64,000 nt of DNA from a virus, in IMG/VR virus record IMGVR_UViG_3300031576_000005, positions 1-64,000 of that record; one strand, given 5' to 3'. A model generated the notes under the pieces. The model saw only the letters and a list, made by a program, of their open reading frames with translations. It made no database searches and had not been told where the DNA came from. Below, in pieces: positions 14,013 through 63,810 of this stretch; positions within the stretch are counted from its first letter, which is position 1, and every line of letters begins with the position of its first letter. The position numbers and the translations under genes are program-made.

Positions 14013-14019
14013 AGTGTAA
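14013..14019 (+). promoter_or_regulatory. Putative phage late promoter core AGTGTAA (copy upstream of methyltransferase)
   Basis: AGTGTAA-N8-ATG; same motif at 11 other gene-proximal positions. Confidence 0.65.
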
Positions 14020-14027
14020 ATATTAAC

Positions 14028-14661
14028 ATGAATATAATTCAGATTGGGTCAAATAATGGGAAAGACCATGTTTTTGATTTTGTAAGCAAAAATGCTAATA
14101 AAATTAATAAATTAATTCTCGTAGATGCCCTACAAGAATGTATAGAAGAGACAAAAATACAATACAAAGATTTTCCTTTCGCCCAATTTATTCATTGTTG
14201 CGTTTCTAATCATAACGAAGAATTTCAAACCTTTTTTAAACCAAATAACCAACGAACTAATGTTAGTTCTACTAATCGCGACCAATTAATTAAACATTGC
14301 GAAAATGATATTTTAGAAATCAAAGTCCCATCTCAACATATTAATGATATAATTAAGATGGCCGCGGATTCAGAGAGAGAGAGAGAGAGTAGATAGGCTT
14401 TATATTGACGCAGAGGGGTTGGATTGCGATATAATATTAGCAATTGATTTTGATTTATATAATATAGATTATATTCAATTCGAAGGGGGACATTGTGATG
14501 GACCTCATGCTAATGGAGGTTCAAAATATGATTCAATAATAAAACTATTAATTTCTCATGGTTTTAAAATACAAAATATTCCACATCACGACACAATTGC
14601 TATAAAAAATCATTTAGACTGGAAAGATTTTGTCGACGAATTAAAAGTAATTGTTCTCTAA
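14028..14661 (+). pseudogene. FkbM-family SAM-dependent methyltransferase, frameshifted at an (AG)9 tract (possibly phase-OFF)
   Basis: N-half IQIGSNNG.DHV...LVDA; C-half in +1 frame VDRLYIDAEGLDCDII...IQFE; (AG)10 or (AG)7 gives one 211/209-aa ORF. Confidence 0.8.
14372..14389 (+). repeat. (AG)9 simple sequence repeat
   Basis: agagagagagagagagag inside the methyltransferase, exactly at the frame break. Confidence 0.95.
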
Positions 14662-14719
14662 TTTTTAATTTATCACATATTAGCACAAGGGGAGATAGAG
14701 CATCTCTTTTTGAAATCAC

Positions 14720-14781
14720 TCCCGAACGGGAAGTATTTGACCAAAAGGACGTTAAATCTCTAATTTATTCCCGAACGGGAA
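14720..14781. repeat. Two copies of palindrome TCCCGAACGGGA (putative operators)
   Basis: At 14720-14731 and 14769-14780, just upstream of a sigma70 promoter. Confidence 0.6.
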
Positions 14782-14792
14782 AATTTTAATAG

Positions 14793-14821
14793 TTGACAAC
14801 AACGAAGTATCGTGATATATT
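14793..14821 (+). promoter_or_regulatory. Sigma70 promoter with extended -10
   Basis: TTGACA-N17-TATATT with TGn; ATG 6 nt downstream. Confidence 0.65.
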
Positions 14822-14827
14822 GAATAT

Positions 14828-14996
14828 ATGAATAATTACGACGAACTTAATAAAAAATTAGATGAACTAAAAAAACACATTGGTTCATATGCAGAACGAT
14901 ATTAAGGATTTACATAATAAAATAGATACCATATATCCACCGGCACCGGTGGGATGTAAGCGGATAAAAAAGATTTTACAACCATCAACTATTTGA
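14828..14996 (+). pseudogene. Small coiled-coil gene frameshifted at A7
   Basis: MNNYDELNKKLDELK|NTLVHMQNDIKDLHNKID... joins if one A of 14869-14875 is removed. Confidence 0.4.
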
Positions 14997-15049
14997 TTAG
15001 AAATAATAAAATAGATTAAACGTAACTTAATCTGTCTATCGTCTTTCAA

Positions 15050-15253: not shown

Positions 15254-15266
15254 AAATCTTACATAA

Positions 15267-15449: not shown

Positions 15450-15454
15450 TCTAT

Positions 15455-15706: not shown

Positions 15707-15731
15707 TTTAATCCTTTTAATTTATTTACTA

Positions 15732-22746: not shown

Positions 22747-25476
22747 ATGCGTGAACCGTTGCTTTCTTCAACAGGGAAGTTTTTCCCAATTTGGTCTGGT
22801 TTCGTTGACCCTTCATTAAGACCCGCTTTGATGATTGCAAGGGATGGGTCTGGATACAGACCCGTTGATATTGGTGAATTAGGTACTACGGCTATTGCTA
22901 GTGGTCTTAATGTTAATATTACCGGAATAGTTAATAATGAACAAGTTACACAAATTGCTGGCTCTGGAAATGTTGATACAGCTAATAAAGTTTTTGTTGA
23001 TTCTCAAGGTCGTTTCTTTACATTATCTTCGCAAACCGGAATTTGGTCTGTTGGTTTAACCGGTACTAATAATGTTACCTTAACCAATCCAGTTTCACAA
23101 GTTTCAATTACTGGTCAACCAATTAATGTAAACGCAGGACAAAGTGGAGCGTGGACAGTTTCTTTAACTGGTTCTAATAGTATAACCATTTCAAACCCAC
23201 AGACCCAGGTCGGAATCACAGGTCAACCCATAAATGTCAACGCGGGTCAAAGTGGTTCTTGGGGAGTTTTAGCGGCTCAAAGCGGAGCATTTACAGCCTC
23301 AGTTGCACAAAGTGGCGCGTGGTCATTTACAGAACTTAATCCTACAACAAAAGTAGGAATTACTGGAGTCACGGGTTTGGGTGCAGATGTAGTTCTCGCG
23401 GGCGGGTATAATTCGATTTCTACGATTATTACATCTGGAACATTAACCGCAACCATTAGCAATCCTATAAGTCAAGTTGGAATAACAGGGCAACCCATCA
23501 ACGTTAACGCCGGACAAAGCGGAGCTTGGAATGTGTTAGCCGCGCAAAGTGGCGCTTGGAGCACTACAAATTTAAACCCACAAACGATTGTTGGAATTAG
23601 TGGCACGACTGGCCTCGCCATACAAGTAATTTCTTCTAACGGATATAATTCGATTCCAGTAATGATTACGTCGGGAGATATTGAGCTTGGTTCTTTATCC
23701 GTCGCTCAAAGTGGTGCATGGTCTGTCTTAGCAGCGCAGAGTGGCACTTGGAATATAACAGATTTAAGCCCTCAAACGAAGGTGGGTATAACTGGCGTTA
23801 CTGGTCTAGGAGTAGATGTAGTTTCTGCTGGTGGATATAATTCTATACCAACTATCATTACGTCAGGAACTGTAACCGCAACACTCTCTAACGGGGCTAC
23901 TAAAGTTGGAATTACTGGTGTAACGGGATTGGGTGTAGATGTGACTTTAGCCGGCGGATACAATTCTTTGGCCTCGATTGTAACGTCTGGTTCTGTAACG
24001 GCTACAATTTCGAATCCCGTTTCTCAAGTTAGCATAACTGGTCAGCCAATAAACGTCAATGCTGGGCAGAGTGGAGCATGGAATGTCCTTGCCGCACAAA
24101 GTGGCGCTTTCAATGCTTTGGTAGCTCAAAGTGGAGCATGGAGCGTCACAACACTCAACCCACAAACAAAAGTTGGAATTACGGGGACAACCGGTTTAGG
24201 TGCTGATGTTGTGCTCGCAGGCGGATATAATTCTATTTCAACTATCGTTACTTCTGGAAATATTGATGCAAATCAAAAAGGCGCGTGGAATGTATCTTCC
24301 GCTCAAAGTGGAACATGGGGAGTTTTAGCGAGACAAAGCGGAGAATTTACGGCGTTAGTTGCACAAAGCGGCGCATGGTCTACTACGACATTGAATCCTC
24401 AAACGAAAGTGGGAATAACCGGAGTTACTGGTCTTGGAGTTGATTCAGCACTTACCAATGGATACAACTCTTTAGCTGTAATGATAACTTCTGGTAGTAC
24501 TACTGCCACAATTTCAAATCCACAGACTCAGGTCGGAATCACCGGTCAACCTATAAATGTTAACGCTGGACAATCTGGGACTTGGACAGTAAGTTTAACG
24601 GGTTCTAACTCTATAACGATTTCTAACCCTGGTACAAAAGTTGGAATAACTGGCGTCACTGGATTAGGTGCAGATGTCGTTTTAGCGGGGGGATACAATT
24701 CATTATCAGTTATTGTTCCTTCTGGAGCTGTTAATTCTACTCAACAAGGAGCTTGGAATGTTTCCTCTGCACAAAGCGGAGGATGGAACGTATTAGCCAA
24801 ACAAAGTGGAGAATTTACAGCTTTGGTGGCTCAGAGTGGCGCTTGGTCTTTCACACAACTTAATCCCCAAACTAAAGTCGGTATTACTGGGGCGAACGGT
24901 TCTGGAATAGATTCTCTTTTGGTTGGCAACTATAATTCTCTAACAGTTGCTATAACTTCTGGAGCTAGTAATACTACAAATTTTGGAATTACTGGAGTGA
25001 CTGGACTTGGTACAGATGTTGTCTTAGCTGGTGGATATAACTCTATTCCTGTAATAATTACATCAGGCTTACCTTCCCTAGCGTCTGGAATTTTATCTTC
25101 AGTTGGTATTAGTGGTTCGACTGGTTTGCTAGCTACAGTAACCGGAGCATACGGAACTAACGCATTATGTGTCGCCATAACCTCTGGCAATTCTTTTGTT
25201 CGTGGTAGTGGTGCTAATAGGGGTCACAGAATTACCACTAGTGGTGTTTCACAGCAAGTTGCCGCTGCGAATGCTAATCGAAGATATTTAAAAGTTCAAA
25301 ACATTGACGATACAAACATGTGGGTTAATTATGGTAGTGTAGCAAGTAGTGGAAGCGGTTCATTTATCATTTATCCAGCCGGTTCAGATGTTTATGAAGC
25401 GGGATTTATCGAAACAGGAAGTGTTAATGTTTTTGGGTTAGTTGCAGGAAAACAATATACAATAAAAGAAGCTTAA
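22747..25476 (+). CDS. Repeat-rich virion fibre/spike protein (S/T-G rich)
   Basis: Modules AQSGAW.V, NPxTKVGITGVTGLGxDVVLAGGYNS and QVxITGQPINVNAGQSG; N-terminus shared with 27352. Confidence 0.75.
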   Translation: MREPLLSSTGKFFPIWSGFVDPSLRPALMIARDGSGYRPVDIGELGTTAIASGLNVNITGIVNNEQVTQIAGSGNVDTANKVFVDSQGRFFTLSSQTGIWSVGLTGTNNVTLTNPVSQVSITGQPINVNAGQSGAWTVSLTGSNSITISNPQTQVGITGQPINVNAGQSGSWGVLAAQSGAFTASVAQSGAWSFTELNPTTKVGITGVTGLGADVVLAGGYNSISTIITSGTLTATISNPISQVGITGQPINVNAGQSGAWNVLAAQSGAWSTTNLNPQTIVGISGTTGLAIQVISSNGYNSIPVMITSGDIELGSLSVAQSGAWSVLAAQSGTWNITDLSPQTKVGITGVTGLGVDVVSAGGYNSIPTIITSGTVTATLSNGATKVGITGVTGLGVDVTLAGGYNSLASIVTSGSVTATISNPVSQVSITGQPINVNAGQSGAWNVLAAQSGAFNALVAQSGAWSVTTLNPQTKVGITGTTGLGADVVLAGGYNSISTIVTSGNIDANQKGAWNVSSAQSGTWGVLARQSGEFTALVAQSGAWSTTTLNPQTKVGITGVTGLGVDSALTNGYNSLAVMITSGSTTATISNPQTQVGITGQPINVNAGQSGTWTVSLTGSNSITISNPGTKVGITGVTGLGADVVLAGGYNSLSVIVPSGAVNSTQQGAWNVSSAQSGGWNVLAKQSGEFTALVAQSGAWSFTQLNPQTKVGITGANGSGIDSLLVGNYNSLTVAITSGASNTTNFGITGVTGLGTDVVLAGGYNSIPVIITSGLPSLASGILSSVGISGSTGLLATVTGAYGTNALCVAITSGNSFVRGSGANRGHRITTSGVSQQVAAANANRRYLKVQNIDDTNMWVNYGSVASSGSGSFIIYPAGSDVYEAGFIETGSVNVFGLVAGKQYTIKEA

Positions 25477-27351: not shown

Positions 27352-27822
27352 ATGCATTCTCCATTTATATCTAGCACTAGTCTATTTTTCCCTGTTTGGT
27401 CCGGTTTTTCCGACCCCTCTCTTAGACCAACCCTTATGGTCGCAAGGGATGGCTCTGGCTATCGACCGGTTGAAATTGCGGAATTTGGTGGCGATATCTT
27501 AATTAGTGGAATTACAGTCAGTAATAAGCCAGCGCTTCCCGTTTCTCAAGGAACCTACGGAATTTCTTTAACCGGAACTGGTAGTTTTAGCAATTATTCC
27601 AGCTCAATCCCAACCGCTACCGGCGCGGTTGTAAGTTTAAGTGTTGAACCACATTCTGATAATAATGATATTATATATTATGCGTTTAGTGGAAATGCTA
27701 CAACGGGTAATGCTTGGGAAATTAGGGGCGATAGAACATTTGAGATTGTTAATAACTCAAGTCTATTTTTTGCACAACGGACTTCTGGCCAAATAGTAAT
27801 GGTTCATTTTCAGACATTTTAA
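27352..27822 (+). CDS. Virion protein; N-terminal ~45 aa paralogous to 22747
   Basis: FFPVWSGFSDPSLRPTLMVARDGSGYRPVEI versus FFPIWSGFVDPSLRPALMIARDGSGYRPVDI. Confidence 0.75.
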   Translation: MHSPFISSTSLFFPVWSGFSDPSLRPTLMVARDGSGYRPVEIAEFGGDILISGITVSNKPALPVSQGTYGISLTGTGSFSNYSSSIPTATGAVVSLSVEPHSDNNDIIYYAFSGNATTGNAWEIRGDRTFEIVNNSSLFFAQRTSGQIVMVHFQTF

Positions 27823-31032: not shown

Positions 31033-31036
31033 GTTT

Positions 31037-32248
31037 ATGGCACTTAATAATTATCCGATAATTCCGGGACAAAAAACAAATAATAACGCCCTGGTAATGA
31101 CAGATGTTGGTGGCGATAAAAGAGGGGACAATGCTATCGATATACAGAGTTCCCACATATCATCAAGAGTTGCTGCCGGTACTAATTCTATTTGTCTTGG
31201 GGTAGATAATCTAGCCAAATCGGAAGGTTCAATTTCTATTGGTGTCAATAATATTTCAACTGGTAATTATTCATTAGTTATAGGTGCTGGAAATACATGC
31301 TCTGGGGTTTATTCTCTAGTGTGTGGAAACTTCAATTCTACTAGTAACGATGTAGCTATTGCTTATGGACATGGTAATATCATCAACGGTATTCAATCAT
31401 CATGCTTTGGGGTTTCTAATACCGCGTCTGGAAGCTATTCGGTCTCTATTGGCAGAACAAACTCTACTGATTTTAGCTCCGCCGTAGCGATTGGACTCGG
31501 TAATATTTCGGCATCAGCATATAGTGCAGCCATTGGTGTCTCCAATACTTCTACCGGACCACAGTTAGCCGCATCTATTGGTTTAGCTAATTCGGCGGCA
31601 GGCGTTTACTCCGCCGCTTTTGGTGGTAGGAATAAAACCGCCGCAGATACACAACAAAAATTTGGATATTATAATTTTGGGTCGTCAACCTCAATATCTT
31701 CTATAGGTATTGGTATTGGTAATAATAGCCAACAAGTATCTGTCGATAAAAATACCGGAGTTGTTACTGTTGGGACTCCTGTTGCAGCTAGTAGCGTTGG
31801 AATTCGTTCAGTTGCTGTTGGTATTAATAATAATCCTAGTTCAAATAATTGTTCTGTTTTCGGCCAAGATATATCGGGAAATATAAGCGGATGTTGCATG
31901 ATTGGTCCAAATAATAATAGTAGAATGGTAATTTCTGGTAGTGGAACTGTTATTATGAGTGGAATGGCTTTGGCCACCACAACCGAGACCCTTAATTATA
32001 ACGCTAAAGCAAGCGATAGTTTAATTATAATGGATATTAATACGAGTCGTACTCTCCAACTACCCAATGCTATTGGCAATAAAGGACGTGTATATATAGT
32101 AAAAAATATTGGCACTTCTACAAGAACGGTAACCGTTAGTAGCGTAATTGGAGGTCAAACAATCGATGGAGCCGCATCAGATGTTATTAGCGGAAATTAT
32201 TTAGTCCGAACGTATATTTCAGATAATAGCAATTGGTTCACAATTTAA
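31037..32248 (+). CDS. Adhesin-like fibre, paralog of 28348
   Basis: RGDNAIDIQ, G..N.ASG.YS repeats; shared C-terminal ...GQTIDG...SDNSNW domain. Confidence 0.75.
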   Translation: MALNNYPIIPGQKTNNNALVMTDVGGDKRGDNAIDIQSSHISSRVAAGTNSICLGVDNLAKSEGSISIGVNNISTGNYSLVIGAGNTCSGVYSLVCGNFNSTSNDVAIAYGHGNIINGIQSSCFGVSNTASGSYSVSIGRTNSTDFSSAVAIGLGNISASAYSAAIGVSNTSTGPQLAASIGLANSAAGVYSAAFGGRNKTAADTQQKFGYYNFGSSTSISSIGIGIGNNSQQVSVDKNTGVVTVGTPVAASSVGIRSVAVGINNNPSSNNCSVFGQDISGNISGCCMIGPNNNSRMVISGSGTVIMSGMALATTTETLNYNAKASDSLIIMDINTSRTLQLPNAIGNKGRVYIVKNIGTSTRTVTVSSVIGGQTIDGAASDVISGNYLVRTYISDNSNWFTI

Positions 32249-52874: not shown

Positions 52875-54467
52875 ATGGCTACTATTAAATATGGTGCTTT
52901 AAATTTGGTGCCATCACCAGAACTCGGATTAACTCTTGAATCCAAATTTGTTGGAGCAGATATTCGATATTCTTTAAGTAAAGTCTATTCACTTAGAGGA
53001 ACGATTCTTTCTAATCAAACTAGTGGCTTTTCCGGTATCTATATCAAACAAAATGATATTATTACTGGCTTCCAACCAAACTATCTGCCATTTGAAGTTA
53101 ATGGTGTTATAGTTGGATACCCACAAATAAAGTCAATTGCTTTTGATAATAGTAATTATTTACTCAAGAATGCTTATAACATTCAGTTGGAAATCCTTGA
53201 TAGCGGAAATCCCTTTCAGTTTACAGGAGCGAACTATGGATTTACTGGAGTTACGGGGTTATTTCATAATATAGAATCGATAAGCGAAAGCCTAGATTAT
53301 TCGACAGACTTCAGAACCTATAGCTATACCCATTCCGTTGATTTAACATATCGTAGTGGATTTAATATTGACCCATTATTAAATGCGAAATTGATATCAT
53401 CGGGTATTTTAAATAATAAAACAGCTTTTCCGTTTATAACATCGGGTGGTATTTCGGGCGTTAAGACATATGAAGAAAGAACGGATGTGTTTGGTGGAGA
53501 ATACAGTGTTACTGAAAAATTCCAAGGAACTACTGGGAACCTGGCTTATACTCATCTTTTTTCTCTTGCGTTGAATCTTGACAATAATGGGATTACTACT
53601 GTTTCTCAGAACGGCGAAGTGGTTGGTTATGACCCAAATAAATACCTTCAGGCGAAGTCTGGATATACAATAGAAATTACGGGGGCTTATAATAATTGTA
53701 ACACTTTATATGCTAGAAGTTCTCCTTTTAACTTAAACACAACATATCTTACTGACAATAGGATAGATGATATAAACCTTGGTAAAATCACTTATAGTCG
53801 TTCATTTAGTGATGAGACGGGTGTATCAAATTTTAGATGGCAATACTCGCACTCTATGGAGCTTGATGAAAATTATATTAGGCTTTCTGAGAATGGGAAT
53901 ATTTTAGGATTAGACCATGCGAGCACCAGATTTGCTACTTCAAGCGGTGGATGGAATACTGTGAAAACTGGTATATCAGAACGACTTTTCGCACAGTACT
54001 CAGGGTATAACCAGACGGGAATAATTTACCCCATAAGTCGCACGCAAACTTTCGACCGTTTCAATGGTGGAATCACATACAATTATGAGTACTCTAATAA
54101 GGGAATTTTCAATCAAACAAGTGGAATAAAATCACATAATACCACAATATCAGATAGCGTCGTGACTCACGCCGTCGCGAGTTTTAATATCGTAAATTCA
54201 TCCGTGATAGTCCAAGACCTAGAAACCACGAGGCCCGGTACTAGAAGCGTGTCCTCAGACATCGTATATTTAAGAGAAACACCTACTACAGGGTTTTTAC
54301 AATTTACTACTAATCTTTTGAATTCTCACCGTCCTACAGGTGTAGATTTTATAGACCCATTTCTCGAAAGATTGAGCTTGAATCATTCTCCATTATCGAA
54401 TAATATAAGGGTGGATGCTAGCTATAATTTTAGGGGTCTCCGCACAATTTCAGGTTTCGACCTTTAA
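52875..54467 (+). CDS. Tail-tip/baseplate protein, paralog of 55368
   Basis: After TMP; repeated NG.I.G...ITY..SF domains. Confidence 0.65.
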   Translation: MATIKYGALNLVPSPELGLTLESKFVGADIRYSLSKVYSLRGTILSNQTSGFSGIYIKQNDIITGFQPNYLPFEVNGVIVGYPQIKSIAFDNSNYLLKNAYNIQLEILDSGNPFQFTGANYGFTGVTGLFHNIESISESLDYSTDFRTYSYTHSVDLTYRSGFNIDPLLNAKLISSGILNNKTAFPFITSGGISGVKTYEERTDVFGGEYSVTEKFQGTTGNLAYTHLFSLALNLDNNGITTVSQNGEVVGYDPNKYLQAKSGYTIEITGAYNNCNTLYARSSPFNLNTTYLTDNRIDDINLGKITYSRSFSDETGVSNFRWQYSHSMELDENYIRLSENGNILGLDHASTRFATSSGGWNTVKTGISERLFAQYSGYNQTGIIYPISRTQTFDRFNGGITYNYEYSNKGIFNQTSGIKSHNTTISDSVVTHAVASFNIVNSSVIVQDLETTRPGTRSVSSDIVYLRETPTTGFLQFTTNLLNSHRPTGVDFIDPFLERLSLNHSPLSNNIRVDASYNFRGLRTISGFDL

Positions 54468-54481: not shown

Positions 54482-55375
54482 ATGATAATTTGTTTAAATT
54501 TTTTGAGTACATACGAAGAAGGGAAAAGGCATTATACAAAGAGTCTCGTTAAGTGTGATGACTGTGGCACCGAGAGAACAATAAGTAAGAGTCATGTTAA
54601 TGAAGGAATTGGCGTAAAATATTGCCGTATTTGTTCGCAAAGGGGAGATAGAAGTTGTCATAAAGGAAAACATCTAACCGAAGAACATAGAAAAAAAATA
54701 TCAAATTCTACCAAAGGAGAAAATCACTCATTTTTTGGAAAGCATCATTCTGAAGAAACTAAACAAAAACTCAGAGAAGCTAATCTTAATAAAGAAGTTT
54801 CCGAAGAAACTCGAAAAAAATTAAGTTTGGCATCCAGCGGAGAGAAAAATCCTAATTATGGTAAGAAACATTCTGAAGCGACTAAAGCAAAAATATCTTT
54901 AACCCACAAAGGGAAAATTATATCAGAAGAAAGCAAAAGAAAAATGTCTTTGGCAGCAAAAGGAAGGATATTTACAGAGGAACATAAACGCAAACTATCT
55001 ATTGCTCTTTCTAGCACTAACAATCCGAACTATGGGAAATATGGTGAAGAAAGTCCGAACTGGAACGAAAATTTAACGAAACAAGACAGAAAGGATAGAA
55101 GGGGTATTTTTGAATATAAAGATTGGTGCTTAAAAATTAAGCAGCGAGATAACTGGAAATGTCAAATTACCGAAGATGATATTGGCGGAAATTTAATAGC
55201 ACATCATTTTTATAATTGGACTTATTATCCAGAAAAACGCTTCGATATAAATAATGGCATTACGCTTAGAGAAGACATTCATATACTTTTTCATATGATT
55301 TTTGGTTGGAGACATAATACTACAGAACAATTCGAAATATTTAAACAATATATGGCGGAGGTATTAAATGTCTAA
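54482..55375 (+). CDS. Zn-ribbon/NUMOD3/HNH endonuclease (copy 6)
   Basis: Six NUMOD3 repeats; AHHFYNW...NNGITL. Confidence 0.85.
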   Translation: MIICLNFLSTYEEGKRHYTKSLVKCDDCGTERTISKSHVNEGIGVKYCRICSQRGDRSCHKGKHLTEEHRKKISNSTKGENHSFFGKHHSEETKQKLREANLNKEVSEETRKKLSLASSGEKNPNYGKKHSEATKAKISLTHKGKIISEESKRKMSLAAKGRIFTEEHKRKLSIALSSTNNPNYGKYGEESPNWNENLTKQDRKDRRGIFEYKDWCLKIKQRDNWKCQITEDDIGGNLIAHHFYNWTYYPEKRFDINNGITLREDIHILFHMIFGWRHNTTEQFEIFKQYMAEVLNV

Positions 55376-56981
55376 AATTTTTTACAACGGAATAAATATT
55401 TTTACGTCTCAACCCACGCCATTGGTATCTCGCACAATCGAGCCAATTTTTAGGAAAGATGGCAGACAGCTTGCTATGGTAGAAAAAATTTCTTTGGTGG
55501 GACAAATTACGGGATGCGATTTTTCCACCATATCAGGATTCCAGTCTGTTATTAGTTCTGGATTTAACAGAGACTTCGGGGATTTGCGTTTTGAAGATTA
55601 TAATTTTACTGGGACGGCATCTGGATGTAAAGTTTTAAGCGTTGATTTTCAGCAAGGCACAATGGTCGGCATCCAAAATTATACGATAAATCTCCAGTCT
55701 TATAATGAGTCGTTTTACGAGACAATCGGGATAATAGAAAAGAAAAATTCTTGGTCAATATCGCAAGAAGAAAATGGAAACACCAACATAACCCATGAAA
55801 TCTTCGCAAAGGGAGCGAATACAGGACCACAATATAACAATGCCTTCGATAAAGCAAAGAGCTTTGTTCTCTCACTAACTGGATTTAATCCACCGTCTTT
55901 ATTTCCTTTTTTTATTTCGGGGTTTTCAGGTTCCTTGGATTCGAGGTCAGAAAATATAAATCGCTTGGAGGGTACATACGGAATATCAGAATCTTATGTT
56001 GGTAGTAGTGGAAATAAAATCTCGCAAGAAACAACTATTAATTTAACCTCCGGAAATGATGGAATTATACAAGTAGATGTTAACGGAACTTTTCGTGGTG
56101 GAAAAAACGAAAATTTCGATATAGTTCGTACAGCATATTCGGGATTTGATGCTTTTGCCTACGTGACTGGAATGTATTTTGATTATAGAAAAGTCACGGG
56201 ACTTTTTTCGTTGCCACTTTCAAGCGGTTATACAGAGAATATACGCGACGGCTCAATCGATTTCAATATAAGTTTTAATGATTATCCGACTGTCAGATTT
56301 AAACACGTTCCCAGCATCCAAATCACATCAGGACAAGACGGTATTATCACAGCGTCATTAAACGGCGAAGTTCAAGGCTTGGGACGCCAACGGCCACTAA
56401 GATATGATAATGCATATAATTTTTTCACCGGTTTAAATATCTTCAATCTCGCCAATGAAGAATATAATATTTATGTAGGCACTGGCTATGGATATTCCCT
56501 CAATACATTTCCGCTATCTTCCGGTATTGGTATAGACCGATTCGGTGGTAAGATTACTTATAATGTAACATTTAATGATAAGCCGCTTGGCCTGAACTGT
56601 TCCGGAATTAAAAACTTTGACTATTCCGTTCGTAAAGAGTATGCCATGAGAGCACTAAGATTTGGGATGGTTCCGTATTCTGAATCAGGCGGATGCGTTC
56701 AAGATTTAAATTATGCCTCAAGAGCTACGATTTCCGTAAATGGAAATGTCTTATCAAATCCCTCGGTATTAAGAGCAAAAACCGCCGCACAACAATTTGT
56801 TAATTATAAATTTCGGTTGCAGTATATGCAAGGAAGAGATAATATGATATTAGACGGGGGTTCTATATCTGAAAATATAGATTCAAATTCAGCCACATTC
56901 GATTATAATATTTCATTTGATGAAGCCGCGCCAATTAATGCCGATGTGAGCTATACATTTATTACGGGGTTGACAATTTAA
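55368..56981 (+). CDS. Tail-tip/baseplate protein, paralog of 52875
   Basis: TSG.DGII...NG...G repeats; DRF.G.ITY shared with 52875. Confidence 0.65.
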   Translation: MSKIFYNGINIFTSQPTPLVSRTIEPIFRKDGRQLAMVEKISLVGQITGCDFSTISGFQSVISSGFNRDFGDLRFEDYNFTGTASGCKVLSVDFQQGTMVGIQNYTINLQSYNESFYETIGIIEKKNSWSISQEENGNTNITHEIFAKGANTGPQYNNAFDKAKSFVLSLTGFNPPSLFPFFISGFSGSLDSRSENINRLEGTYGISESYVGSSGNKISQETTINLTSGNDGIIQVDVNGTFRGGKNENFDIVRTAYSGFDAFAYVTGMYFDYRKVTGLFSLPLSSGYTENIRDGSIDFNISFNDYPTVRFKHVPSIQITSGQDGIITASLNGEVQGLGRQRPLRYDNAYNFFTGLNIFNLANEEYNIYVGTGYGYSLNTFPLSSGIGIDRFGGKITYNVTFNDKPLGLNCSGIKNFDYSVRKEYAMRALRFGMVPYSESGGCVQDLNYASRATISVNGNVLSNPSVLRAKTAAQQFVNYKFRLQYMQGRDNMILDGGSISENIDSNSATFDYNISFDEAAPINADVSYTFITGLTI

Positions 56982-56982: not shown

Positions 56983-58533
56983 ATGAGTTCACAGGGGCTA
57001 CAATACATATTTAATAAGTTTGGCGGGGATTTAAACACCCTTCCAGTTCTTTATGATTTTTCCGTTTCTGGTAATTACGTCAACAATGTATCACAACAAG
57101 GTACAGGAAATCATCTTGGAATAATCAGTGGGTCTCAATCTCAATTCTGGGCAACTTCTGGCTCTGGCACTTTTTCTAATCACGTAGTCACAATTTCTGG
57201 AACTAGTGGATTAGTATTAAATGATTTCGCGGTTTTCTTGTGGGGCAATCGACAAAACAATGCAAGAGATAATGTTCTTTTCTCTTCAATAGAGGATTAT
57301 ATTTCGGGAATCGCTAGCGGCGGCCATGTTTTCATTAACCCCGCTAATAAATTAGTATTTCTATTCAAAACCTGCGTGGGAACGCAAAGTTATATCTCTG
57401 ATTTTAATGTAATTTCAGATTTTGCCGTTGGTGTTTCAAAAAGCAATAGCGTTTTAAATCTATATCAATATGATTATTACAACCAATCAATTGCCACTAA
57501 TAGTTTTACAATAAATAGATTCGCCGACTATTTTCCTATTAATCATTTTTCTATTGGATATGGGCCAAGTGGCGCAAACTTGATTAATAACCAATTTTAT
57601 AGCGGGTCTTTAAATACATTTTTATTAGTTTCGGGTGGAGTGAATAGCAATAATGCTCAATTAATCTTTTCTGGTCGATATGTTGAGACTCAAACCACAT
57701 CCCCCGCCACTATCTCTGGGAACGAATGTACGGGGCTTGTAACGCTTGGGGGTAGTACGACAGTGGTTAATCAATCCGTCATTCCCAGTGGAATGTTCTT
57801 TAAACAAGGTATCCTAATCTTTTCACAACCTCTTATTGCGACAGATTTAGTTCTTTTAGACTGTGCAACGACGGGGCAAAACCTTTTTAATCAAAAAACG
57901 CTAACAAATCCTGGTAATAGCTACAGTTTGGGTACATCCGTTTCTGCTAATATCGGTCTCTATCTTAATGGACAGAGGTTAATCAGTGGGGCAAGTAGCG
58001 TGACTGGGTCATTTTGTACCACTGGGACATTATTTCCCAAAGACTACGATATTGCAAATAAAATCAGTATTATTGGAATAAATAACTTAATTGCAACAGA
58101 TGTGTTGAAATATGATGTACAAAATGCTAATATACTGTTACAGACAGTATTAAGCAGCGGAACAGGGACATTTGCCGTTAGTAGTGCCTCTGGGATAGGA
58201 TACTATGTAAATGGAATAAGGAATTTAAACTTTGACCAAGTAGGGACTGGAATAACGCCACAAAGTAATTTAAACAATGGTGATGTTATACTAGTTGATT
58301 ATTTTAATAATGGATATATAAAAAACAATGTTATAGCAAGTACCAACCCCTATTTGGTTAGCGGGGGTTTCGTTGCAAATACTTCAATGGTTTATTTAAA
58401 TGGACAAAGGTTGTCTCTAAATGTAGATTATATAGAAATAAATTCTGGCGAATTCCCAGCTTTTACCTTTAAACCGATTTCATCAACTGCAATTTTTGAT
58501 GCATCAAACATAAATAATACTTGGAATATTTAG
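56983..58533 (+). CDS. Virion protein with LamG/concanavalin-like N-half and YLNGQRL repeats
   Basis: Y.NG.R repeats; S/T-G rich. Confidence 0.6.
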   Translation: MSSQGLQYIFNKFGGDLNTLPVLYDFSVSGNYVNNVSQQGTGNHLGIISGSQSQFWATSGSGTFSNHVVTISGTSGLVLNDFAVFLWGNRQNNARDNVLFSSIEDYISGIASGGHVFINPANKLVFLFKTCVGTQSYISDFNVISDFAVGVSKSNSVLNLYQYDYYNQSIATNSFTINRFADYFPINHFSIGYGPSGANLINNQFYSGSLNTFLLVSGGVNSNNAQLIFSGRYVETQTTSPATISGNECTGLVTLGGSTTVVNQSVIPSGMFFKQGILIFSQPLIATDLVLLDCATTGQNLFNQKTLTNPGNSYSLGTSVSANIGLYLNGQRLISGASSVTGSFCTTGTLFPKDYDIANKISIIGINNLIATDVLKYDVQNANILLQTVLSSGTGTFAVSSASGIGYYVNGIRNLNFDQVGTGITPQSNLNNGDVILVDYFNNGYIKNNVIASTNPYLVSGGFVANTSMVYLNGQRLSLNVDYIEINSGEFPAFTFKPISSTAIFDASNINNTWNI

Positions 58534-58537: not shown

Positions 58538-60607
58538 ATGAGTATAATTAAGGCTGGTAAAATATTAATTAATGGTTCGACCAACGTATTTGGTGGATTT
58601 GTTTATTCCGCGAGTTTTAACCATGAATATGGCCAAAGCCCATCTACTTTGAATTTGTCTGTAATTTCAAAAAGTAAAGAATATATTCCCGTTCAACTAT
58701 CCGCCACAATCCCCTACTCCATTAAAATCGGCGACGAAATAACGCTAAAGATGTATGCTACGGACTGGAGCATCAGCGATGGAACAGATGGTAGAACTCT
58801 TAGTATTGTTTTTGTTGATGGTCGGATTAAGATGAATAGAATTTGGGTGGCTCTGGTTGACTTTCCATGTGGAAGAAGTACTCTTGTAAGTCCTTCTTCT
58901 AGATTTGAAGGATTATCAAATCCAAGTATTGCCGATAATCCCAATATTATATTGCTTGGTGGTAAATTTAATCCATCCGCCGAACAGATTAATCAGTTTA
59001 CTGGTGTTAAAGAAGGCACTTCTCCAACGTTAACAAGCCCTACTAATCCATCTAATGGTGAACAGTTATTTTTATCTTATTCTTATGATGCTCTTCGTGA
59101 GAAATCTCCAATTACATTGCCGGTTATTCCAAATTCTACAAATATTTTTAGATTGAATACGGAAGCAACACTTTCAGAAGTATTCAGCCAATTTTGTGTG
59201 GCTTATGGTTTTACATGGTATTGGGATTATGATACCGATACACCATTATTACTAGATTTAAGAACACAAATAGATTTAGACGCTAACCTTTCAAATCAAT
59301 TAAGAGATATTCATTGTTTGAAATCTATATCTTTTGGAGAAAGCATTAAAGACCTAGAAACTCAAGGGGTTGTATTCTATAATGATACAAGTGTAGCCGT
59401 AGAAGAAACACAAATACCACAAAAGGTAATTTTTCCAGTTAAAAATTTTCTTACAGCGGGGGATTTCTTAACCTTTCCGTTAATTAGTAAATCTACGGTT
59501 GCTGGTGTAACAGTAGACCATATAGAAGCGGCTATTATGGCTACATGGGGAGAAGCTATTTACGAATCATATATTTTTGATAAATATTCCGGGGAAGATA
59601 TTAAAGCTGCAATTGAAATTTACGGATATAATATAATATCTAATCAGACCTTTGTTCAGATGAATAGCGCACAACAAGCAGCCGTTAAAACCAAATCAGA
59701 AAAAGATGTCTTTTTAAATGATGTAAGACTTATCCGTGTTCATCCTATTAATCAACAAAATTCTTTAAAAGACGCTCATTTTAGGATGGCGGATATTATA
59801 AAATCAAAACAAATTGGATTTTTATTCGCCCCATATAAAATAGAAGTAGAAGGAATCGACGTAAGTTTTATTAATCCAGATTTTGCAATAGATGAAACTC
59901 CTGGTGTTAGTGCTTTTTTAGAGGGTGGCAAAGCGGCTGATAGTTTTGGTTTAACTAAATTTGATGGGACGCGCAATTCTACGAGAATAAAAAGTCGAAC
60001 ATCATTATTTCTTCATATCGTAACATTTCCAAATTTAAAATTTACATTTGATGCTTTTGATAGCGCAAGCCCCCAAAGTTCTAGTCCGACTTTCAAACAA
60101 CAAAGAGATTGGCTAAGCAACGGACATGAATTTGACCCAGGCGGAGACCCAACCGATAGATTTTTTATGATTTATGGACAACCAAATACCCCGCCCGTTC
60201 CAAGGGTACAAGGCTTAATTGGATATGTAGCTGCTAATCCTCCAGATATTCAATCTAGTCCCTCCACAATAGCAGATAGCTATTCTTCAAAATATAAAAA
60301 ATCAATTTGCAATATTCCCGTGGTGAATGATTTATCTACAAGTTTTAGGATTTTGAGTTTAAGTAATGATGGTATATTATCCCCCGTTTCTGCCGTTGTA
60401 AATTCTGCCGTATCTCCAACAGTTCCATTTCGGACATTTTCTGTAGAAATTTATGGTCTCAACACCGGTCTAAATCTTACCCCACAAAAGGGGTTAGATA
60501 GTTTTAAAGTTGTAATGGGGGATGGTGGATATGAATCTTCGTATACGCTATCTTCTAAAAAAAGAATTCCATTAGATAATCGTATAGTAAAACAATTATT
60601 TATTTAA
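58538..60607 (+). CDS. Baseplate hub / Tal-like protein
   Basis: TLSEVFSQFC..YGFTWYWD pattern; position. Confidence 0.55.
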   Translation: MSIIKAGKILINGSTNVFGGFVYSASFNHEYGQSPSTLNLSVISKSKEYIPVQLSATIPYSIKIGDEITLKMYATDWSISDGTDGRTLSIVFVDGRIKMNRIWVALVDFPCGRSTLVSPSSRFEGLSNPSIADNPNIILLGGKFNPSAEQINQFTGVKEGTSPTLTSPTNPSNGEQLFLSYSYDALREKSPITLPVIPNSTNIFRLNTEATLSEVFSQFCVAYGFTWYWDYDTDTPLLLDLRTQIDLDANLSNQLRDIHCLKSISFGESIKDLETQGVVFYNDTSVAVEETQIPQKVIFPVKNFLTAGDFLTFPLISKSTVAGVTVDHIEAAIMATWGEAIYESYIFDKYSGEDIKAAIEIYGYNIISNQTFVQMNSAQQAAVKTKSEKDVFLNDVRLIRVHPINQQNSLKDAHFRMADIIKSKQIGFLFAPYKIEVEGIDVSFINPDFAIDETPGVSAFLEGGKAADSFGLTKFDGTRNSTRIKSRTSLFLHIVTFPNLKFTFDAFDSASPQSSSPTFKQQRDWLSNGHEFDPGGDPTDRFFMIYGQPNTPPVPRVQGLIGYVAANPPDIQSSPSTIADSYSSKYKKSICNIPVVNDLSTSFRILSLSNDGILSPVSAVVNSAVSPTVPFRTFSVEIYGLNTGLNLTPQKGLDSFKVVMGDGGYESSYTLSSKKRIPLDNRIVKQLFI

Positions 60608-60608
60608 T

Positions 60609-61058
60609 ATGCCACTATCCTCATCACCCACTCCTTTATCAAACACTATATCTCTTGGTGGAACGGGGGGGAATCCTTCTTTTAAAGTATCTAACTATAA
60701 TAAAACAACGACAGAAGCTACTATATTATATGGGACTTTAAATATAAACAGTCAATTTGTTGCTTCTAGTAAAACGATTGGTGCAGAATCTAAAATTTTT
60801 GCAGCATTAGGTAGCTTTATATATTTACAGATTAATAAAATTTTCAGTAGAACGGAAACGCCGACTATAGAATTTTTTAATTCTTTTGATTCTCCAGACC
60901 AACAGACAAAGGCTGATGGAACACCAACTGGAAAAAAAATTGAAGTTCCCGCGGCTCCATTTCCAAGTATTATCTGCCTCGCTTTTATTGACAATGACGG
61001 CAAAATATTTGACTTGAGGCCAGCCTGGGTTATTAATGTATTTTCATTTTTAGGATAA
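60609..61058 (+). CDS. Hypothetical tail protein
   Basis: ORF coupled in late operon. Confidence 0.6.
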   Translation: MPLSSSPTPLSNTISLGGTGGNPSFKVSNYNKTTTEATILYGTLNINSQFVASSKTIGAESKIFAALGSFIYLQINKIFSRTETPTIEFFNSFDSPDQQTKADGTPTGKKIEVPAAPFPSIICLAFIDNDGKIFDLRPAWVINVFSFLG

Positions 61059-61074
61059 TGCAATTTAAAATAAT

Positions 61075-63810
61075 ATGATAGCTATAGGTACTAACACATC
61101 ATTAAATAGATATATTCCTGTTCAAAGTGGGAATTACAGTGTTAGCACGCAATTCAATGTAAATAATACAAATACTAAATTTGATATCTTATTGTCTGGA
61201 CGCGGAAAAATCAGTCTTGGCCTCGGCTTTGAAAGTGGTAATATTTACTCCTCTGGAAATAATAAAGTATATTTTGACGGCATCTCAAGTAATACCAATT
61301 CTAACGTTGTTTCGTTAATTGTCAGTTCCACCGGTTTTGATGTTTATGTGAATAGTTCTCCCGTTTTAGTTTCTCAAGCGAAATCTACGGGTAATCTAGA
61401 AAAAATATTTTTTATAGGAAATTCCGGAACTTTTACGGGAACATGTGCTACCACAATATTTGGAAATCCTCCAAATGTTATTATTGCAGATGTGCTACAG
61501 AATTTTGTTTTACCTAGACAATCTCTTATTAATACTGGGCTTACTTTAATTAATACATCAAATGTGGATTCTAGAATTTTAGCCGCCACAATATATAGTT
61601 TGCAAAGTGGCAGTATAATTCAATCGCTTCTACCAGTTCTAATAAAAGGCGGAGAACAAAAAGTAGTTCCCTTTTCTGGTCAATATTTAATATCGGGGAC
61701 GCAACAACCACTTTTGCTAAGTTATTCTACAGATTTTGATGTTGATTTTATTAACTCAACAATTATTCCTACAGAGTTCTCTGGTAAAGGAATTAGGGTT
61801 ACACAACAAACGGCGGCAACTTCTTTAAATTCTAGCGGCGAAGGAACTGTTCTAGTTGAAAATACTGGAACTGTATCTTCTCCTATAACTCCAGTTATAT
61901 TATCCAGCGGTATTTTAATTGGATTTTCGGGATATAACCTTAGAGCTTTCAGAAATATCATTGGTGGTTCGGGAATTGCTTCTGATATTGTAACTGGGGA
62001 TTTCAATACAAAAAAATTCTTTAATCTTCAAACAACTTATCCATTCTTTTTTTCTGATAGACTTACGTCTTCTAAGAGCGATTTTTATTTAGTTCAGAAT
62101 AATATATCTAGTGTCCCAACTTTTGGTATTAGTGGCTCTGGTGCTCACGATGCTTTTAGCACAATTATTAATCCTAATCACGCGGGGCGAGCTTTAGGAT
62201 TTTTTAAATCTACGGCATTGGGACATTCATTTAAAGCTCCTTATGATTTTATAACGACCTATGTTAAACTTCCGTTGCGAGGACAAGGCGACCATTTTTA
62301 TCAGGAATCTGGCAGTCATATTTTTTGGCAGAAGCATCTTAATTTTAGCCCCGCCGATAGAGTCGGAGTTTACATTATAAGTGGCACCGGAATTAATACA
62401 TCCGGAGCACTAGCCAATGGTTGGATAAATTGTTCTGGTAATATTCGTAATTTTGGCTTTTGGAGTCATGCAAGGCAAGCAAATAATCAGGGTAATTTTT
62501 CTAGTACATTTGCAACTGGTTTTGATATACAGCATTTTGAGCTTGATAAGCCAGTTCTTTTTCAGTCGGGAATTAGCTATACAATTTTATTAAGTGGTAG
62601 CGGCACCTGGATGAATCAGGAGGTAAGTGGCCAGCGATATATTACGTGGCAAGGACTATATAGCCATCCGAATGTTGGTTATTACCTAAATGTACCGATA
62701 GGACCATTTCATTCTGGTAATGGAACGGGGTTTTGTGTTTCTAATACTATCCACGCTCCTTATTATAGGGGAATGGGATATCAAACATATCAACCCAACT
62801 CAGCGGCAGAAGCACCGATTGGTGATGATAATTTTGGTGGAACCGCGCCGATAACTGGCGTTCTATATTCGGGAATAATGAATGTACAACGATTTCGCGT
62901 TGCAGAAGATTTTATGCCAAATCAAGTAAGTCTAAATTTTGTGGCAGACGACACGACTGGGACATACGGAGGACAGCTTTATTCTTTTAGGGGTTATGAT
63001 GCTAGATTAGTCACTTTTATATGTACTTCCTCTGGAACTCACGATGATTTTCCTGATTTTACCGCGATTATTTGTAGTGGAAGCAGAGCACATAGCGGAT
63101 TTTATCAACACGATATTACGACAAATGTAAATAGAAATGTTTCTTGGGTACAAGAAAGAATGTTTGAGCTTAATAAAACAGCTCTTCTATCTGGTAATAA
63201 AAATTATTGGTTGGTTTTGAGTGGATTGAATTATCCCACGATTAAAGATTCTGGTGTTCAGGCCGATTACATTCCGGTGGTAAGATTTAGTCATAATTTT
63301 GTAGAGCCAGATGTTTATTACGGATTTAATCTTATTAGTGGCAAAAAACTTATTGCGCTTCGTGATGCTGGAATTTTTTATAGCGGAAACCCAAGTTTAT
63401 CTTCGGGAAATTTATTCAGTACACAGCGATTAACTTTTGATAATTGGATTCAACACAGAATATTTGGTGATGCGGTAAGCGCTTCTGGAATAAGACGCCA
63501 AGAATACGAACTTCCAATGACTATGTGCTTTGAATTTGGAATTAATACGATAAAATATAAGATATGGGACACAAATCCCGTTTCTGGTGTAATTAACGAA
63601 TTTCTTCCAGGGCTTGGATATCAATATAATAAATATCAAACAAGTCAACTTTTCACTATACAGGAAGATTTACCAATCGACCTTCCGGCTGGCGAAGGGG
63701 TGGTTCTAAATCTTACTTATAATGGATTACAGGGATATTTAGATTATGGATTACTTTCTATTCCAGAATTTAACTTTACTGGCTTTGTTTCTGGTTTTAC
63801 ATCTGTCTAA
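61075..63810 (+). CDS. Large tail/receptor-binding virion protein (S/T-G rich)
   Basis: Beta-rich; two related domains (FEL.K..L.SG..Y...LSG). Confidence 0.65.
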   Translation: MIAIGTNTSLNRYIPVQSGNYSVSTQFNVNNTNTKFDILLSGRGKISLGLGFESGNIYSSGNNKVYFDGISSNTNSNVVSLIVSSTGFDVYVNSSPVLVSQAKSTGNLEKIFFIGNSGTFTGTCATTIFGNPPNVIIADVLQNFVLPRQSLINTGLTLINTSNVDSRILAATIYSLQSGSIIQSLLPVLIKGGEQKVVPFSGQYLISGTQQPLLLSYSTDFDVDFINSTIIPTEFSGKGIRVTQQTAATSLNSSGEGTVLVENTGTVSSPITPVILSSGILIGFSGYNLRAFRNIIGGSGIASDIVTGDFNTKKFFNLQTTYPFFFSDRLTSSKSDFYLVQNNISSVPTFGISGSGAHDAFSTIINPNHAGRALGFFKSTALGHSFKAPYDFITTYVKLPLRGQGDHFYQESGSHIFWQKHLNFSPADRVGVYIISGTGINTSGALANGWINCSGNIRNFGFWSHARQANNQGNFSSTFATGFDIQHFELDKPVLFQSGISYTILLSGSGTWMNQEVSGQRYITWQGLYSHPNVGYYLNVPIGPFHSGNGTGFCVSNTIHAPYYRGMGYQTYQPNSAAEAPIGDDNFGGTAPITGVLYSGIMNVQRFRVAEDFMPNQVSLNFVADDTTGTYGGQLYSFRGYDARLVTFICTSSGTHDDFPDFTAIICSGSRAHSGFYQHDITTNVNRNVSWVQERMFELNKTALLSGNKNYWLVLSGLNYPTIKDSGVQADYIPVVRFSHNFVEPDVYYGFNLISGKKLIALRDAGIFYSGNPSLSSGNLFSTQRLTFDNWIQHRIFGDAVSASGIRRQEYELPMTMCFEFGINTIKYKIWDTNPVSGVINEFLPGLGYQYNKYQTSQLFTIQEDLPIDLPAGEGVVLNLTYNGLQGYLDYGLLSIPEFNFTGFVSGFTSV

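Follow-up and report, generated by a model that had tools for sequence, protein, structure and literature searches.

At least five unrelated families of virion proteins in the phage described here place a serine or a threonine ahead of about half of their glycines, and these Ser/Thr–Gly (S/T-G) pairs are under purifying selection. Our analysis leads us to propose, tentatively, that the loops carrying the pairs are acceptor sites for O-glycosylation. An earlier note on this DNA had gone further, proposing S/T-G as the modification sequon of a proteoglycan-like phage coat with its own sulfotransferase and a switchable O-methyltransferase; a selected motif is borne out by composition, protein-level signal, hydroxyl specificity, conservation and a model-phage control, and the specific sulfated and methylated system is not.

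The phage and its virion proteins

The source is an uncultured siphovirus-like phage of 159 kb, and by the window we mean the 64,000-nucleotide stretch of it that was analysed. The features discussed are collected in Table 1; PHROGs gave a name to the portal only. The families concerned are the tail-tip proteins 52875/55368, 56983 and 61075, the repeat fibres 22747 and 67185, and the neck-region protein 40292. Gene 22747 lies between the terminase and the portal, is missing from both relatives considered below, and encodes a protein with a weak match to the PRD1 P5 spike; a DNA tandem repeat was looked for in this gene and none was found.

Table 1. Features discussed, with [ST]G pairs observed and expected for each protein
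Coordinates	Strand	Feature	Observed	Expected	Statistic
14028..14661	+	Two overlapping frames, 122 aa and ~102 aa, split at (AG)9
22747..25476	+	909-aa fibre-like protein, degenerate internal repeats, [ST]G in each repeat	70	32.0	z 8.1
27352..27822	+	156 aa; first 56 residues 64% identical to 22747	9	3.5
28348..32248	+	Two fibre-like S/T/G-rich paralogues (28348, 894 aa; 31037, 403 aa); internal negative control	26; 11	30.8; 11.4	O/E 0.84; 0.97
32849..33676	+	PAPS-type sulfotransferase, PF13469/PF00685
40292..40852	+	186 aa; within head-tail joining gene block	8	2.0	z 4.7
42412..43461	+	Putative tail tube, 349 aa; weak DUF2001 match	12	7.0	p 0.03, O/E 1.7
52875..54467	+	530 aa; immediately after tape measure; paralogue of 55368	23	9.5	z 5.2
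55368..56981	+	537 aa; paralogue of 52875	22	9.5	z 4.7
56983..58533	+	516-aa tail-tip protein, enriched	26	10.4	z 5.9
58538..60607	+	689-aa tail protein, [ST]G-depleted	3	8.0
61075..63810	+	911-aa tail-tip protein, enriched	49	17.8	z 8.6
67185-69299		Repeat fibre just beyond the window, strong excess	62	24.5

An excess of S/T-G pairs in a discrete set of proteins

The hand counts of the earlier note were reproduced for 52875, the tail tube, 40292, the decoration protein (6 in 179 residues), the major capsid protein (MCP; 3 in 359 residues) and 58538, and the portal, given there as about 7, has a raw count of 8. Composition was corrected for with 2000 shuffles of each protein, comparing [ST]G pairs observed with those expected, which rules out a composition artefact as the cause of the excess. 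What outlives the correction is a discrete set, 22747, 40292, 52875, 55368, 56983, 61075 and 67185, with observed/expected ratios (O/E) of 2.2–4.0, the highest within the window being that of 40292; across the remaining genome O/E is about 1. The frequent SG and TG dipeptides noted earlier in 22747, 55368, 56983 and 61075 are thus a strong excess after shuffling as well. The claim that the outer virion proteins share the excess holds for six window proteins; it is marginal in the tail tube, where the sites are dispersed, and in the decoration protein (6 against 2.4 expected, p 0.02), and absent from the fibres 28348 and 31037. The excess is likewise only marginal in 27352 and 27826, moderate in size in the former. 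Neither the tape measure protein (TMP; 20 against 25.1) nor the MCP (O/E 0.82) shows any. The bias is thus missing from the MCP and from those S/T/G-rich fibres that are most exposed, and the idea of a coat over the whole particle does not hold.

The proteins of the set had been called unrelated, and mostly they are, the exceptions being the paralogues 52875/55368 and the N-terminus common to 22747 and 27352. No profile–profile relation was found by hhalign among the 52875/55368, 56983 and 61075 families, and, the pair 52875/55368 apart, BLASTP and hhalign ruled out hidden paralogy of the enriched families. As a full explanation, internal repeats apply to 22747 and not to 52875, 55368, 56983, 61075 or 40292. 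Virion proteins of the same operon outside the enriched set are neutral or depleted (58538 family, 5 against 14.4, P 0.004).

Nature of the signal and selection on the sites

The signal is directional and hydroxyl-specific: SG occurs 88 times against 28.8 expected and TG 40 times against 20.4, GS falls below expectation (16 against 29), and AG, PG, DG and NG are at or below theirs. In the enriched proteins 48% of glycines are preceded by Ser or Thr, against 13% in the remaining genome. S/T-G is encoded by more than 25 different codon pairs, and other frames and other proteins are unaffected; a DNA-level motif or a codon-pair bias was rejected on these grounds, and the signal lies at the level of the protein. 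Next to the pairs I/L/V/F and N/T are over-represented, D/E are not. Longer sequons ([ST]G[ST], [ST]GxT) gained nothing over the dipeptide; an SGxG preference was not found, the third and fourth positions contributing nothing beyond the pair itself.

Across homologues the Ser/Thr of S/T-G stays Ser/Thr at 105 of 120 sites, against 201 of 353 for other Ser/Thr residues (p 3e-10), a specific retention not found in TMP or 58538. All six 56983 homologues retain an O/E of 2.2–3.5, down to 29% identity, and sites turn over among them at a steady density, 36 of the 68 site columns being singletons. The model of 56983 is confident only at residues 80–230, a beta-sandwich in which the sites lie at strand/loop boundaries; for 52875 the Atlas model is of poor quality and yields no fold assignment.

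A generic property of tail proteins was ruled out by a control of 41 proteins from lambda, T5 and T4, in which the bias is absent (maximum z 3.3) and the enriched turn pair is [DN]G, not [ST]G (lambda J, T5 pb3).

The lineage is represented by relatives on contigs of ~85–160 kb. In relative A the orthologues of the enriched proteins have O/E 2.3–2.8 (61075 orthologue, 44 against 16.2) and the 58538 orthologue has 2 pairs against 6.4 expected. The 40292 excess is retained in relatives A and B, and the tail tube stands at O/E 1.3–1.4 in the relatives. On a distant contig, L002, the tail genes are S/T-G-rich (O/E 3.2–3.5).

The sulfotransferase and the ORF at 14028

That 32849 encodes a sulfotransferase, as the earlier note had it, is confirmed by PF13469 (62.6 bits against a cut-off of 27, E 8e-17) and PF00685 (32.2 bits against 22), and a six-frame search agrees. 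PAPS sulfotransferases are recognised by a 5'-phosphosulfate loop, P-K/R-x-G-S/T-T, and by a 3'-phosphate-binding Arg…Ser. Seven homologues show no variation in the corresponding loop here, P10-R-S-G-S-T-L16, or in R113/S121; among solved structures the CurM sulfotransferase comes nearest (E 0.0017), and the match to NoeE is weak. Relative B carries a sulfotransferase in its late operon after the fibre genes, as here. In relative A none was found at the syntenic site or in ~50 kb of the structural/replication block.

Because relative A lacks a syntenic copy yet shows the same bias, the enzyme is uncoupled from S/T-G; the earlier note had itself named such a relative as grounds for giving up the link. 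Relative B, with the sulfotransferase, is no more biased than relative A without it. No APS kinase was found, and a cellular homologue stands on its own among housekeeping genes. The sulfotransferase is a strain-variable accessory gene unneeded for the S/T-G feature and should be treated separately from it; at most it may decorate an S/T-G-linked glycan or a host glycan.

The other enzyme of the proposed system, a switchable FkbM methyltransferase at 14028, fares differently in its two parts. An (AG)9 tract at 14372–14389 does split the ORF; neither frame is closed within the tract, a one-base frame step gives an uninterrupted 210-aa product, and without one AG unit the two would become a single protein of ~210 aa. 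The sequence has the in-frame repeat and the ORF-restoring unit change expected of a phase-variable (slipped-strand) gene, which makes it a candidate for one. The methyltransferase identity is unsupported, split or fused: the 122-aa ORF has no Pfam or PHROG match, the read-through product has no PF05050 match even at E<=10, a six-frame search at E<=0.01 gives no PF05050 match at this site, and a profile built from the FkbM proteins of this genome, whose real genes lie at 104–107 kb, gives <=0.5 bits. As for the late promoter motif ascribed to it, a common 8-mer, AGTGTAAA, does occur upstream of 14028, 16399, 22747 and 27352; a related 9-mer is not above chance across the window (34 against 29.6 expected). 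The 14028 ORF is not demonstrably part of the S/T-G system.

Glycan genes elsewhere in the genome

The search of the remaining genome for glycosyltransferases that the earlier note had proposed did find them outside the window, as GT1, GT2 and GT9 enzymes, within a large glycan toolkit that also holds GDP-mannose dehydratase/epimerases, DegT, sugar C-methyltransferases, FkbM methyltransferases and a carbamoyltransferase. Of particular relevance is a GT1/GT9-like (heptosyltransferase-fold) gene pair at 78.5–83 kb, 12–30 kb from the enriched genes. The pair is conserved across the relatives: relatives A and B have the GT9-like protein, and L002 has the pair, on the opposite strand, within ~2 kb of the nearest enriched gene and ~6 kb of a farther one. 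The GT9-like gene and the bias thus occur together in one lineage and one distant fragment only, and the co-occurrence is therefore not phylogenetically independent; for a wider comparison no usable relatives were found in IMG/VR and none in INPHARED.

The model of the GT9-like protein (pLDDT 88) has WaaF, TibC and WaaC as its best matches. Foldseek gives WaaF 1psw at E 2e-5 and TibC 4rb4 at E 8e-5 with an rmsd of 4–6 A and 20% identity, for a superposition that covers only ~200 columns (TM ~0.33). Only LPS heptosyltransferase models match the product of 81882, at 20–36 bits, and the product of 112882-113793 reaches 23.3 bits against the Aah/TibC model TIGR04414, which has a cut-off of 200 bits. 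Four cysteines of the GT9-like protein, C146, C150, C155 and C161, are nearly invariant and follow the donor lobe.

The pair sits in the replication operon, and a GT1-type gene comes directly after each of the two SSB genes, which makes DNA or the host envelope equally plausible as glycosyltransferase targets. DNA hypermodification via a hydroxymethylase was set aside, no ThyA-like gene having been found, though glycosyltransferase genes follow both SSB genes.

Comparison with known systems

The autotransporter O-heptosyltransferases Aah and TibC (BAHT family), which act on AIDA-I and TibA and whose genes adjoin those of their substrates, are the closest parallel. Both there and, putatively, here a GT9 heptosyltransferase fold meets an all-beta surface protein with many serines in short inter-strand loops. 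TibC modifies Ser-313 of TibA in an N-S-G-G context, and its four-Cys iron finger, inserted in the C-lobe, is built on C339/342/358/370 (PMC4358343). The mapped N-S-G-G site and the presence of TibC among the top structural matches of the phage model are further likenesses, and the Cys cluster after the donor lobe may be another. However, the phage match to the family model (23 against 200 bits) comes from the second GT9-like gene only, the GT9 fold seems to be divided between two genes, the cysteines are not spaced as in the iron finger, and the phage substrates are not 19-residue beta-helix repeats and are enriched in Thr as well as Ser.

Mycobacteriophage glycosyltransferases glycosylate the virion, with glycans on C-terminal extensions of capsid and tail-tube subunits (Freeman et al. 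2023, PMC10527164, cited in PMC12619734). That system resembles ours, putatively, in phage enzymes decorating virion structural proteins. It differs in that the enrichment here leaves out the MCP and is marginal in the tube, and in that the dipeptide is dispersed in tail-tip proteins.

The eukaryotic glycosaminoglycan site is a Ser-Gly with acidic neighbours, used by a xylosyltransferase. The two have the Ser-Gly core in common, but the phage flanks are hydrophobic or Asn/Thr, the SGxG pattern is missing, Thr is enriched too, no xylosyltransferase-type enzyme was identified in the phage, and the link to sulfation fails in relative A. The parallel drawn in the earlier note is not sustained.

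What the S/T-G pairs may be

If the pairs are glycosylation sites, they would occupy very short loops that link beta-strands and be O-glycosylated by phage glycosyltransferases in the assembled or assembling tail tip. The best candidate enzyme would be the conserved GT1/GT9-like pair, possibly fed by the phage pathway at 87–123 kb with a sugar that is deoxy, aminated, C/O-methylated and carbamoylated. The analogy we work from is with Aah/TibC, which have a GT9 fold and hyper-heptosylate serines in the strand-loop-strand elements of autotransporters. Weighing for it are a protein-level, directional and hydroxyl-specific signal, purifying selection, its presence in unrelated families and the glycan toolkit. 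Weighing against it are the lack of bias in the MCP and in the fibres with most exposure, 28348 and 31037, the GT9-like score far below the Aah/TibC cut-off, the enrichment of Thr, whereas TibC modifies serine only, and a positional conservation that suits a structural role equally well.

Such a role is itself a serious candidate, if not a probable one: S/T-G would close tight beta-hairpins or beta-bulges in all-beta tail-tip folds and stay unmodified, the side-chain hydroxyl capping the backbone and the glycine adopting a left-handed conformation, while the glycan genes served host-surface or DNA modification. In type I turns with a G1 bulge and in ST-turn hairpin loops a small polar residue precedes Gly at the strand junction, a general preference that includes Asp/Asn-Gly. 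The directionality found here (SG, not GS) is of this kind, as are the hydrophobic flanks and the strand/loop boundaries; Ser/Thr and Gly alike show strong conservation at individual positions, the bias is family-specific and not surface-wide, sparing fibres and MCP, and the glycosyltransferase genes adjoin SSB and replication genes. Yet generic turns favour D/N-G, as lambda J and T5 pb3 do, and here that pair shows no enrichment; one virion has the preference in five unrelated folds, the 41 model-phage proteins do not have it, and the share of glycines involved and the restriction to some virion proteins exceed ordinary turn statistics, as that control shows. Nor does fold geometry alone predict the depletion of the 58538 family or a turnover of sites at constant density. 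Some other function, such as phosphorylation, acylation or ADP-ribosylation, an assembly-chaperone motif or a loop contacting host polysaccharide, seems unlikely to us; selection and hydroxyl specificity apply to it equally and nothing links the sites specifically to sugar, but no other modification machinery seen comes near the glycan toolkit in size and, a weak argument, no kinase or other writer enzyme appears among 25 of the 76 Pfam families matched in a scan of 110 ORFs.

Least probable is the sulfated, O-methylated coat made by 32849 and a phase-variable FkbM at 14028, which relative A, identical in bias, has largely refuted already. The sulfotransferase is real, with its PAPS motifs intact and its place in the late operon shared by relative B, the (AG)9 tract does split the ORF, and FkbM enzymes exist elsewhere in the genome; against these stand the missing APS kinase and FkbM match, the housekeeping setting of a cellular homologue, a bias no stronger in relative B, which has the enzyme, and the want of acidic flanks, SGxG and enrichment in the MCP or exposed fibres.

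Returning to glycosylation, its fullest form, which we regard as conceivable but doubtful, is an aquatic phage lineage with an S/T-G turn sequon, a split GT1/GT9-like pair hyperglycosylating tail-tip proteins and fibres with a phage-made tailored sugar, strain-specific extras such as sulfation, and bare proteins that avoid the dipeptide.

Significance

If only a turn motif is involved, it would be an unusually strong, lineage-specific structural rule, useful for fold prediction. A lineage-wide S/T-G sequon would, if true, be the phage counterpart of autotransporter hyper-heptosylation. Should the pairs mark glycan attachment, these tail tips would be clad in a programmable coat of sugars with dozens of sites per protein, which would bear on host recognition, on shielding from proteases and antibodies and on the prediction of receptor-binding proteins from sequence, and would offer a simple sequence signature for glycosylated virions in metagenomes.

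Genome organisation

The IMG/VR virus record comprises 159,142 bp and is about 92 % complete; bases 1-64000 make up the window, in which G+C content is 29-39 %, and INPHARED contains no phage resembling this genome. Early genes occupy the minus strand to ~13 kb, and a long plus-strand block begins at ~16 kb (see table; open reading frames are named by their start coordinates). Two homing endonuclease genes with NUMOD3 and HNH domains lie in the window; one separates the tail-tip paralogues 52875 and 55368 and has no counterpart there in relative A, and the other is immediately 3' of the sulfotransferase gene 32849. Genome-wide there are ten NUMOD3-bearing ORFs, these two and eight among the 110 ORFs of the Pfam scan described below.

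Features of the phage genome (positions above 64000 lie beyond the window)
Feature	Position	Strand	Remarks
Terminase	plus-strand block from ~16 kb	+	weak Terminase_6 matches
22747	22747-25476		909 aa; between terminase and portal
Portal	plus-strand block	+	PHROG
Fibre-like genes and head genes	plus-strand block	+	
Homing endonuclease	33679-34449		NUMOD3+HNH
40292	40292-40852		small neck-region protein
Tail tube	plus-strand block	+	weakly DUF2001-like
Tape measure	plus-strand block	+	2021 aa; PF10145 on its orthologue
Large tail-tip genes	plus-strand block	+	in series
Homing endonuclease	54482-55375		NUMOD3+HNH
58538	58538-60607		family also at L003:11548-13521 and L002:2589-4148 (other contigs)
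DNA polymerase III alpha	73867-78205		split into PHP+NTPase, then finger+HhH; Dam-type N6-adenine methyltransferase gene between the pieces
SSB	78195-78503		GT1/GT4-type gene directly 3'
GT1 with intein	78505-81765	+	after SSB gene, replication block
GT9-like gene	81762-82952	+	after GT1, replication block
SSB	123323-123724		GT1/GT4-type gene directly 3'

A directional Ser/Thr-Gly bias

Every ORF was translated and its Ser-Gly and Thr-Gly pairs ([ST]G) were counted against 2000 shuffles per protein, an analysis then repeated genome-wide. An earlier note had reported an excess of these pairs in outer virion proteins, and its hand counts are accurate on recount. The excess holds for a discrete set, namely 22747, 40292, 52875, 55368, 56983, 61075 and, beyond the window, 67185-69299 (observed/expected, O/E, 2.2-4.0; z 4.7-8.6), but is only marginal in the tail tube and decoration protein that the note had included, as it is in 27352 and 27826. 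The major capsid protein (MCP), the tape measure and the Ser/Thr/Gly-rich fibre-like proteins 28348 and 31037 are at expectation, and the tail protein 58538 is below it.

In the five non-repetitive enriched proteins SG occurs 88 times against 28.8 expected and TG 40 times against 20.4, the reverse pair GS 16 times against 28.8, and AG, PG, DG, NG and IG are not above expectation. Ser or Thr precedes 48 % of their glycines as opposed to 13 % in the remaining genome, the sites are written with more than 25 codon pairs, and the flanks are hydrophobic or Asn/Thr; in the enriched proteins a third or fourth position brought no gain over the dipeptide. Given the directional excess, the hydroxyl residues and the many codon pairs, the signal lies at the protein level, runs in one direction and is specific for hydroxyl side chains. 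The protein 40292 also holds a C-P-V-C-N-G-N-G element, possibly half a zinc ribbon.

As 22747 is composed of degenerate protein repeats, its 70 sites are non-independent, and 52875 and 55368 are paralogues. Profile-profile comparison of the 52875/55368, 56983 and 61075 families found no relation, so that, judged from these profiles, at least five unrelated protein families share the bias. The weakly PRD1-P5-spike-like 22747 is missing from relatives A and B; its first 56 residues form an N-terminal module shared with 27352 (64 % identity), which suggests that the two may be alternative fibres with one docking module.

Conservation in relatives and a model-phage control

All six homologues of 56983, from 65 % down to 29 % identity, keep an O/E of 2.2-3.5, with four sites invariant and 36 of the 68 site columns seen in one sequence only. 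Of 56983 itself, residues 80-230 form a domain that models well. Sample SRR21686417 contains both relative A, a 133-kb Logan contig, and relative B. When orthologues of this phage and relative A are paired, the Ser/Thr of [ST]G stays Ser/Thr at 105 of 120 sites compared with 201 of 353 for other Ser/Thr (p 3e-10), and the Gly is retained at 108 of 120 compared with 96 of 130 comparison glycines; the same test gave no extra site retention in the tape measure or 58538. Relative A shows the enrichment in the corresponding orthologues and again a depletion in that of 58538, and the pooled 58538 family has 5 [ST]G against 14.4 expected (P 0.004). Strongly enriched genes (O/E 3.2-3.5) alternate with depleted ones in L002, a distant NCBI contig. 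Members of the 58538 family are interleaved with enriched genes, in a pattern as if the dipeptide were avoided.

The control set was drawn from lambda, T5 and T4, 41 proteins in all, covering those of baseplate, fibre, tube, sheath, capsid and portal as well as two enzymes. None exceeded z 3.3 for [ST]G, and the enriched turn pair, where there is any, is [DN]G; the bias is no generic property of phage tails.

The sulfotransferase and the 14028 gene

The 32849 product is a bona fide Sulfotransfer_3 protein by Pfam with invariant PAPS-binding motifs; no APS kinase was found in the phage. Its more than 1100 homologues are mostly ~50 % identical, some lying on contigs as long as 458 kb, and one cellular homologue is a solitary gene with housekeeping neighbours. 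In relative B (84.6 kb) the corresponding position is taken by an orthologue of 64 % identity. In relative A the fibre genes directly adjoin the gene for a 503-aa head-region protein and the enzyme is missing at the syntenic spot; tblastn gave no match over ~40 kb, the Pfam listing over a further 10 kb held none, and no protein of this contig is among the best 120 of the homologues. The earlier note had tied the bias to this enzyme. By the comparison it proposed, of relatives with and without the gene, the bias appears independent of the sulfotransferase, since it is equal in relative A, lacking the gene in the ~50 kb searched, and not higher in relative B. The sulfotransferase is best handled as a separate accessory gene.

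The same note read 14028 as a switchable FkbM methyltransferase. An (AG)9 tract (14372-14389) does sit where the open frames 14028-14396 and 14353-14661 overlap, and a one-base frame step there, equal to loss of one AG unit, yields an unbroken 210-aa product; the tract may act as a slipped-strand switch, or the frameshift may be fixed. The FkbM identity found no support, as no match to FkbM or to any other family was obtained for either half or for the fused product, the likeness being limited to short motifs; the real FkbM genes lie at 104-107 kb. Of its late promoter motif, a shared AGTGTAAA upstream element exists, but a related 9-mer is not enriched overall. In the intergenic stretch 5' of 14028 (13700-13930), short CCACCACTATAGGTGGTAG-like palindromes recur, at ~13771 and at 13886, and a CACCC..CTATTAAT element is present twice; these may serve in regulation or as terminators where early genes give way to late ones.

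Glycan genes

Scanning 110 further ORFs against Pfam, together with targeted six-frame searches, revealed GDP-mannose 4,6-dehydratase, epimerases, a DegT aminotransferase, sugar C-methyltransferases, FkbM methyltransferases and a carbamoyltransferase. The glycosyltransferases that the earlier note had suggested seeking beyond the window are present, of GT1, GT2 and GT9 type; most of the glycan genes are minus-strand genes between 87 and 123 kb.

The GT9-like protein recurs in relatives A, B and other large contigs, has a nearly invariant four-Cys cluster and gives a confident model (pLDDT 88) whose best matches, over ~200 residues only, are WaaF, TibC and WaaC. A second GT9-like gene matches the O-heptosyltransferases Aah/TibC weakly, far under cut-off. 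The GT1/GT9-like pair is kept in L002, there without the intein, which here is full and bears a LAGLIDADG domain. The last ~120 residues of GT1 resemble the N-lobe of a GT9 heptosyltransferase and the next gene opens with a GT9 donor lobe, suggesting a GT9 fold divided between two genes. With a glycosyltransferase gene following each SSB gene, some of these enzymes might instead be directed at DNA; no hydroxymethylase was found in the genome.

TibC hyper-heptosylates serines of strand-loop-strand elements in TibA, one mapped site being N-S-G-G (PMC4358343). Virion glycosylation is known in mycobacteriophages, where, as described in PMC12619734 (citing PMC10527164), the glycosylated parts are the C-terminal tails of the capsid and tail-tube subunits; here, unlike there, the MCP is unenriched and the tube borderline.

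What the bias may mean

We tentatively read [ST]G as putative O-glycosylation sites, at rather less than even confidence. The bias is specific for hydroxyl residues and marks several unrelated folds within one virion; the neighbouring 58538 family is depleted, sites turn over while their density stays constant, and the model phages do not share it. These findings speak for one selective agent common to certain virion proteins, for which a modification sequon would be a natural explanation, and the glycan toolkit would supply candidate writers. Against O-glycosylation, two GT1 genes adjoin SSB genes, albeit with no hydroxymethylase, and the bias is missing from exposed fibres and the MCP. The column-by-column conservation of sites suits a purely structural motif too, an explanation that is possible if somewhat more doubtful; some other function is unlikely. 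Least probable is the sulfated, methylated, proteoglycan-like coat of the earlier note: the sulfotransferase appears uncoupled from the bias in relatives A and B, and a coat over the particle does not agree with an unbiased MCP and unbiased exposed fibres.
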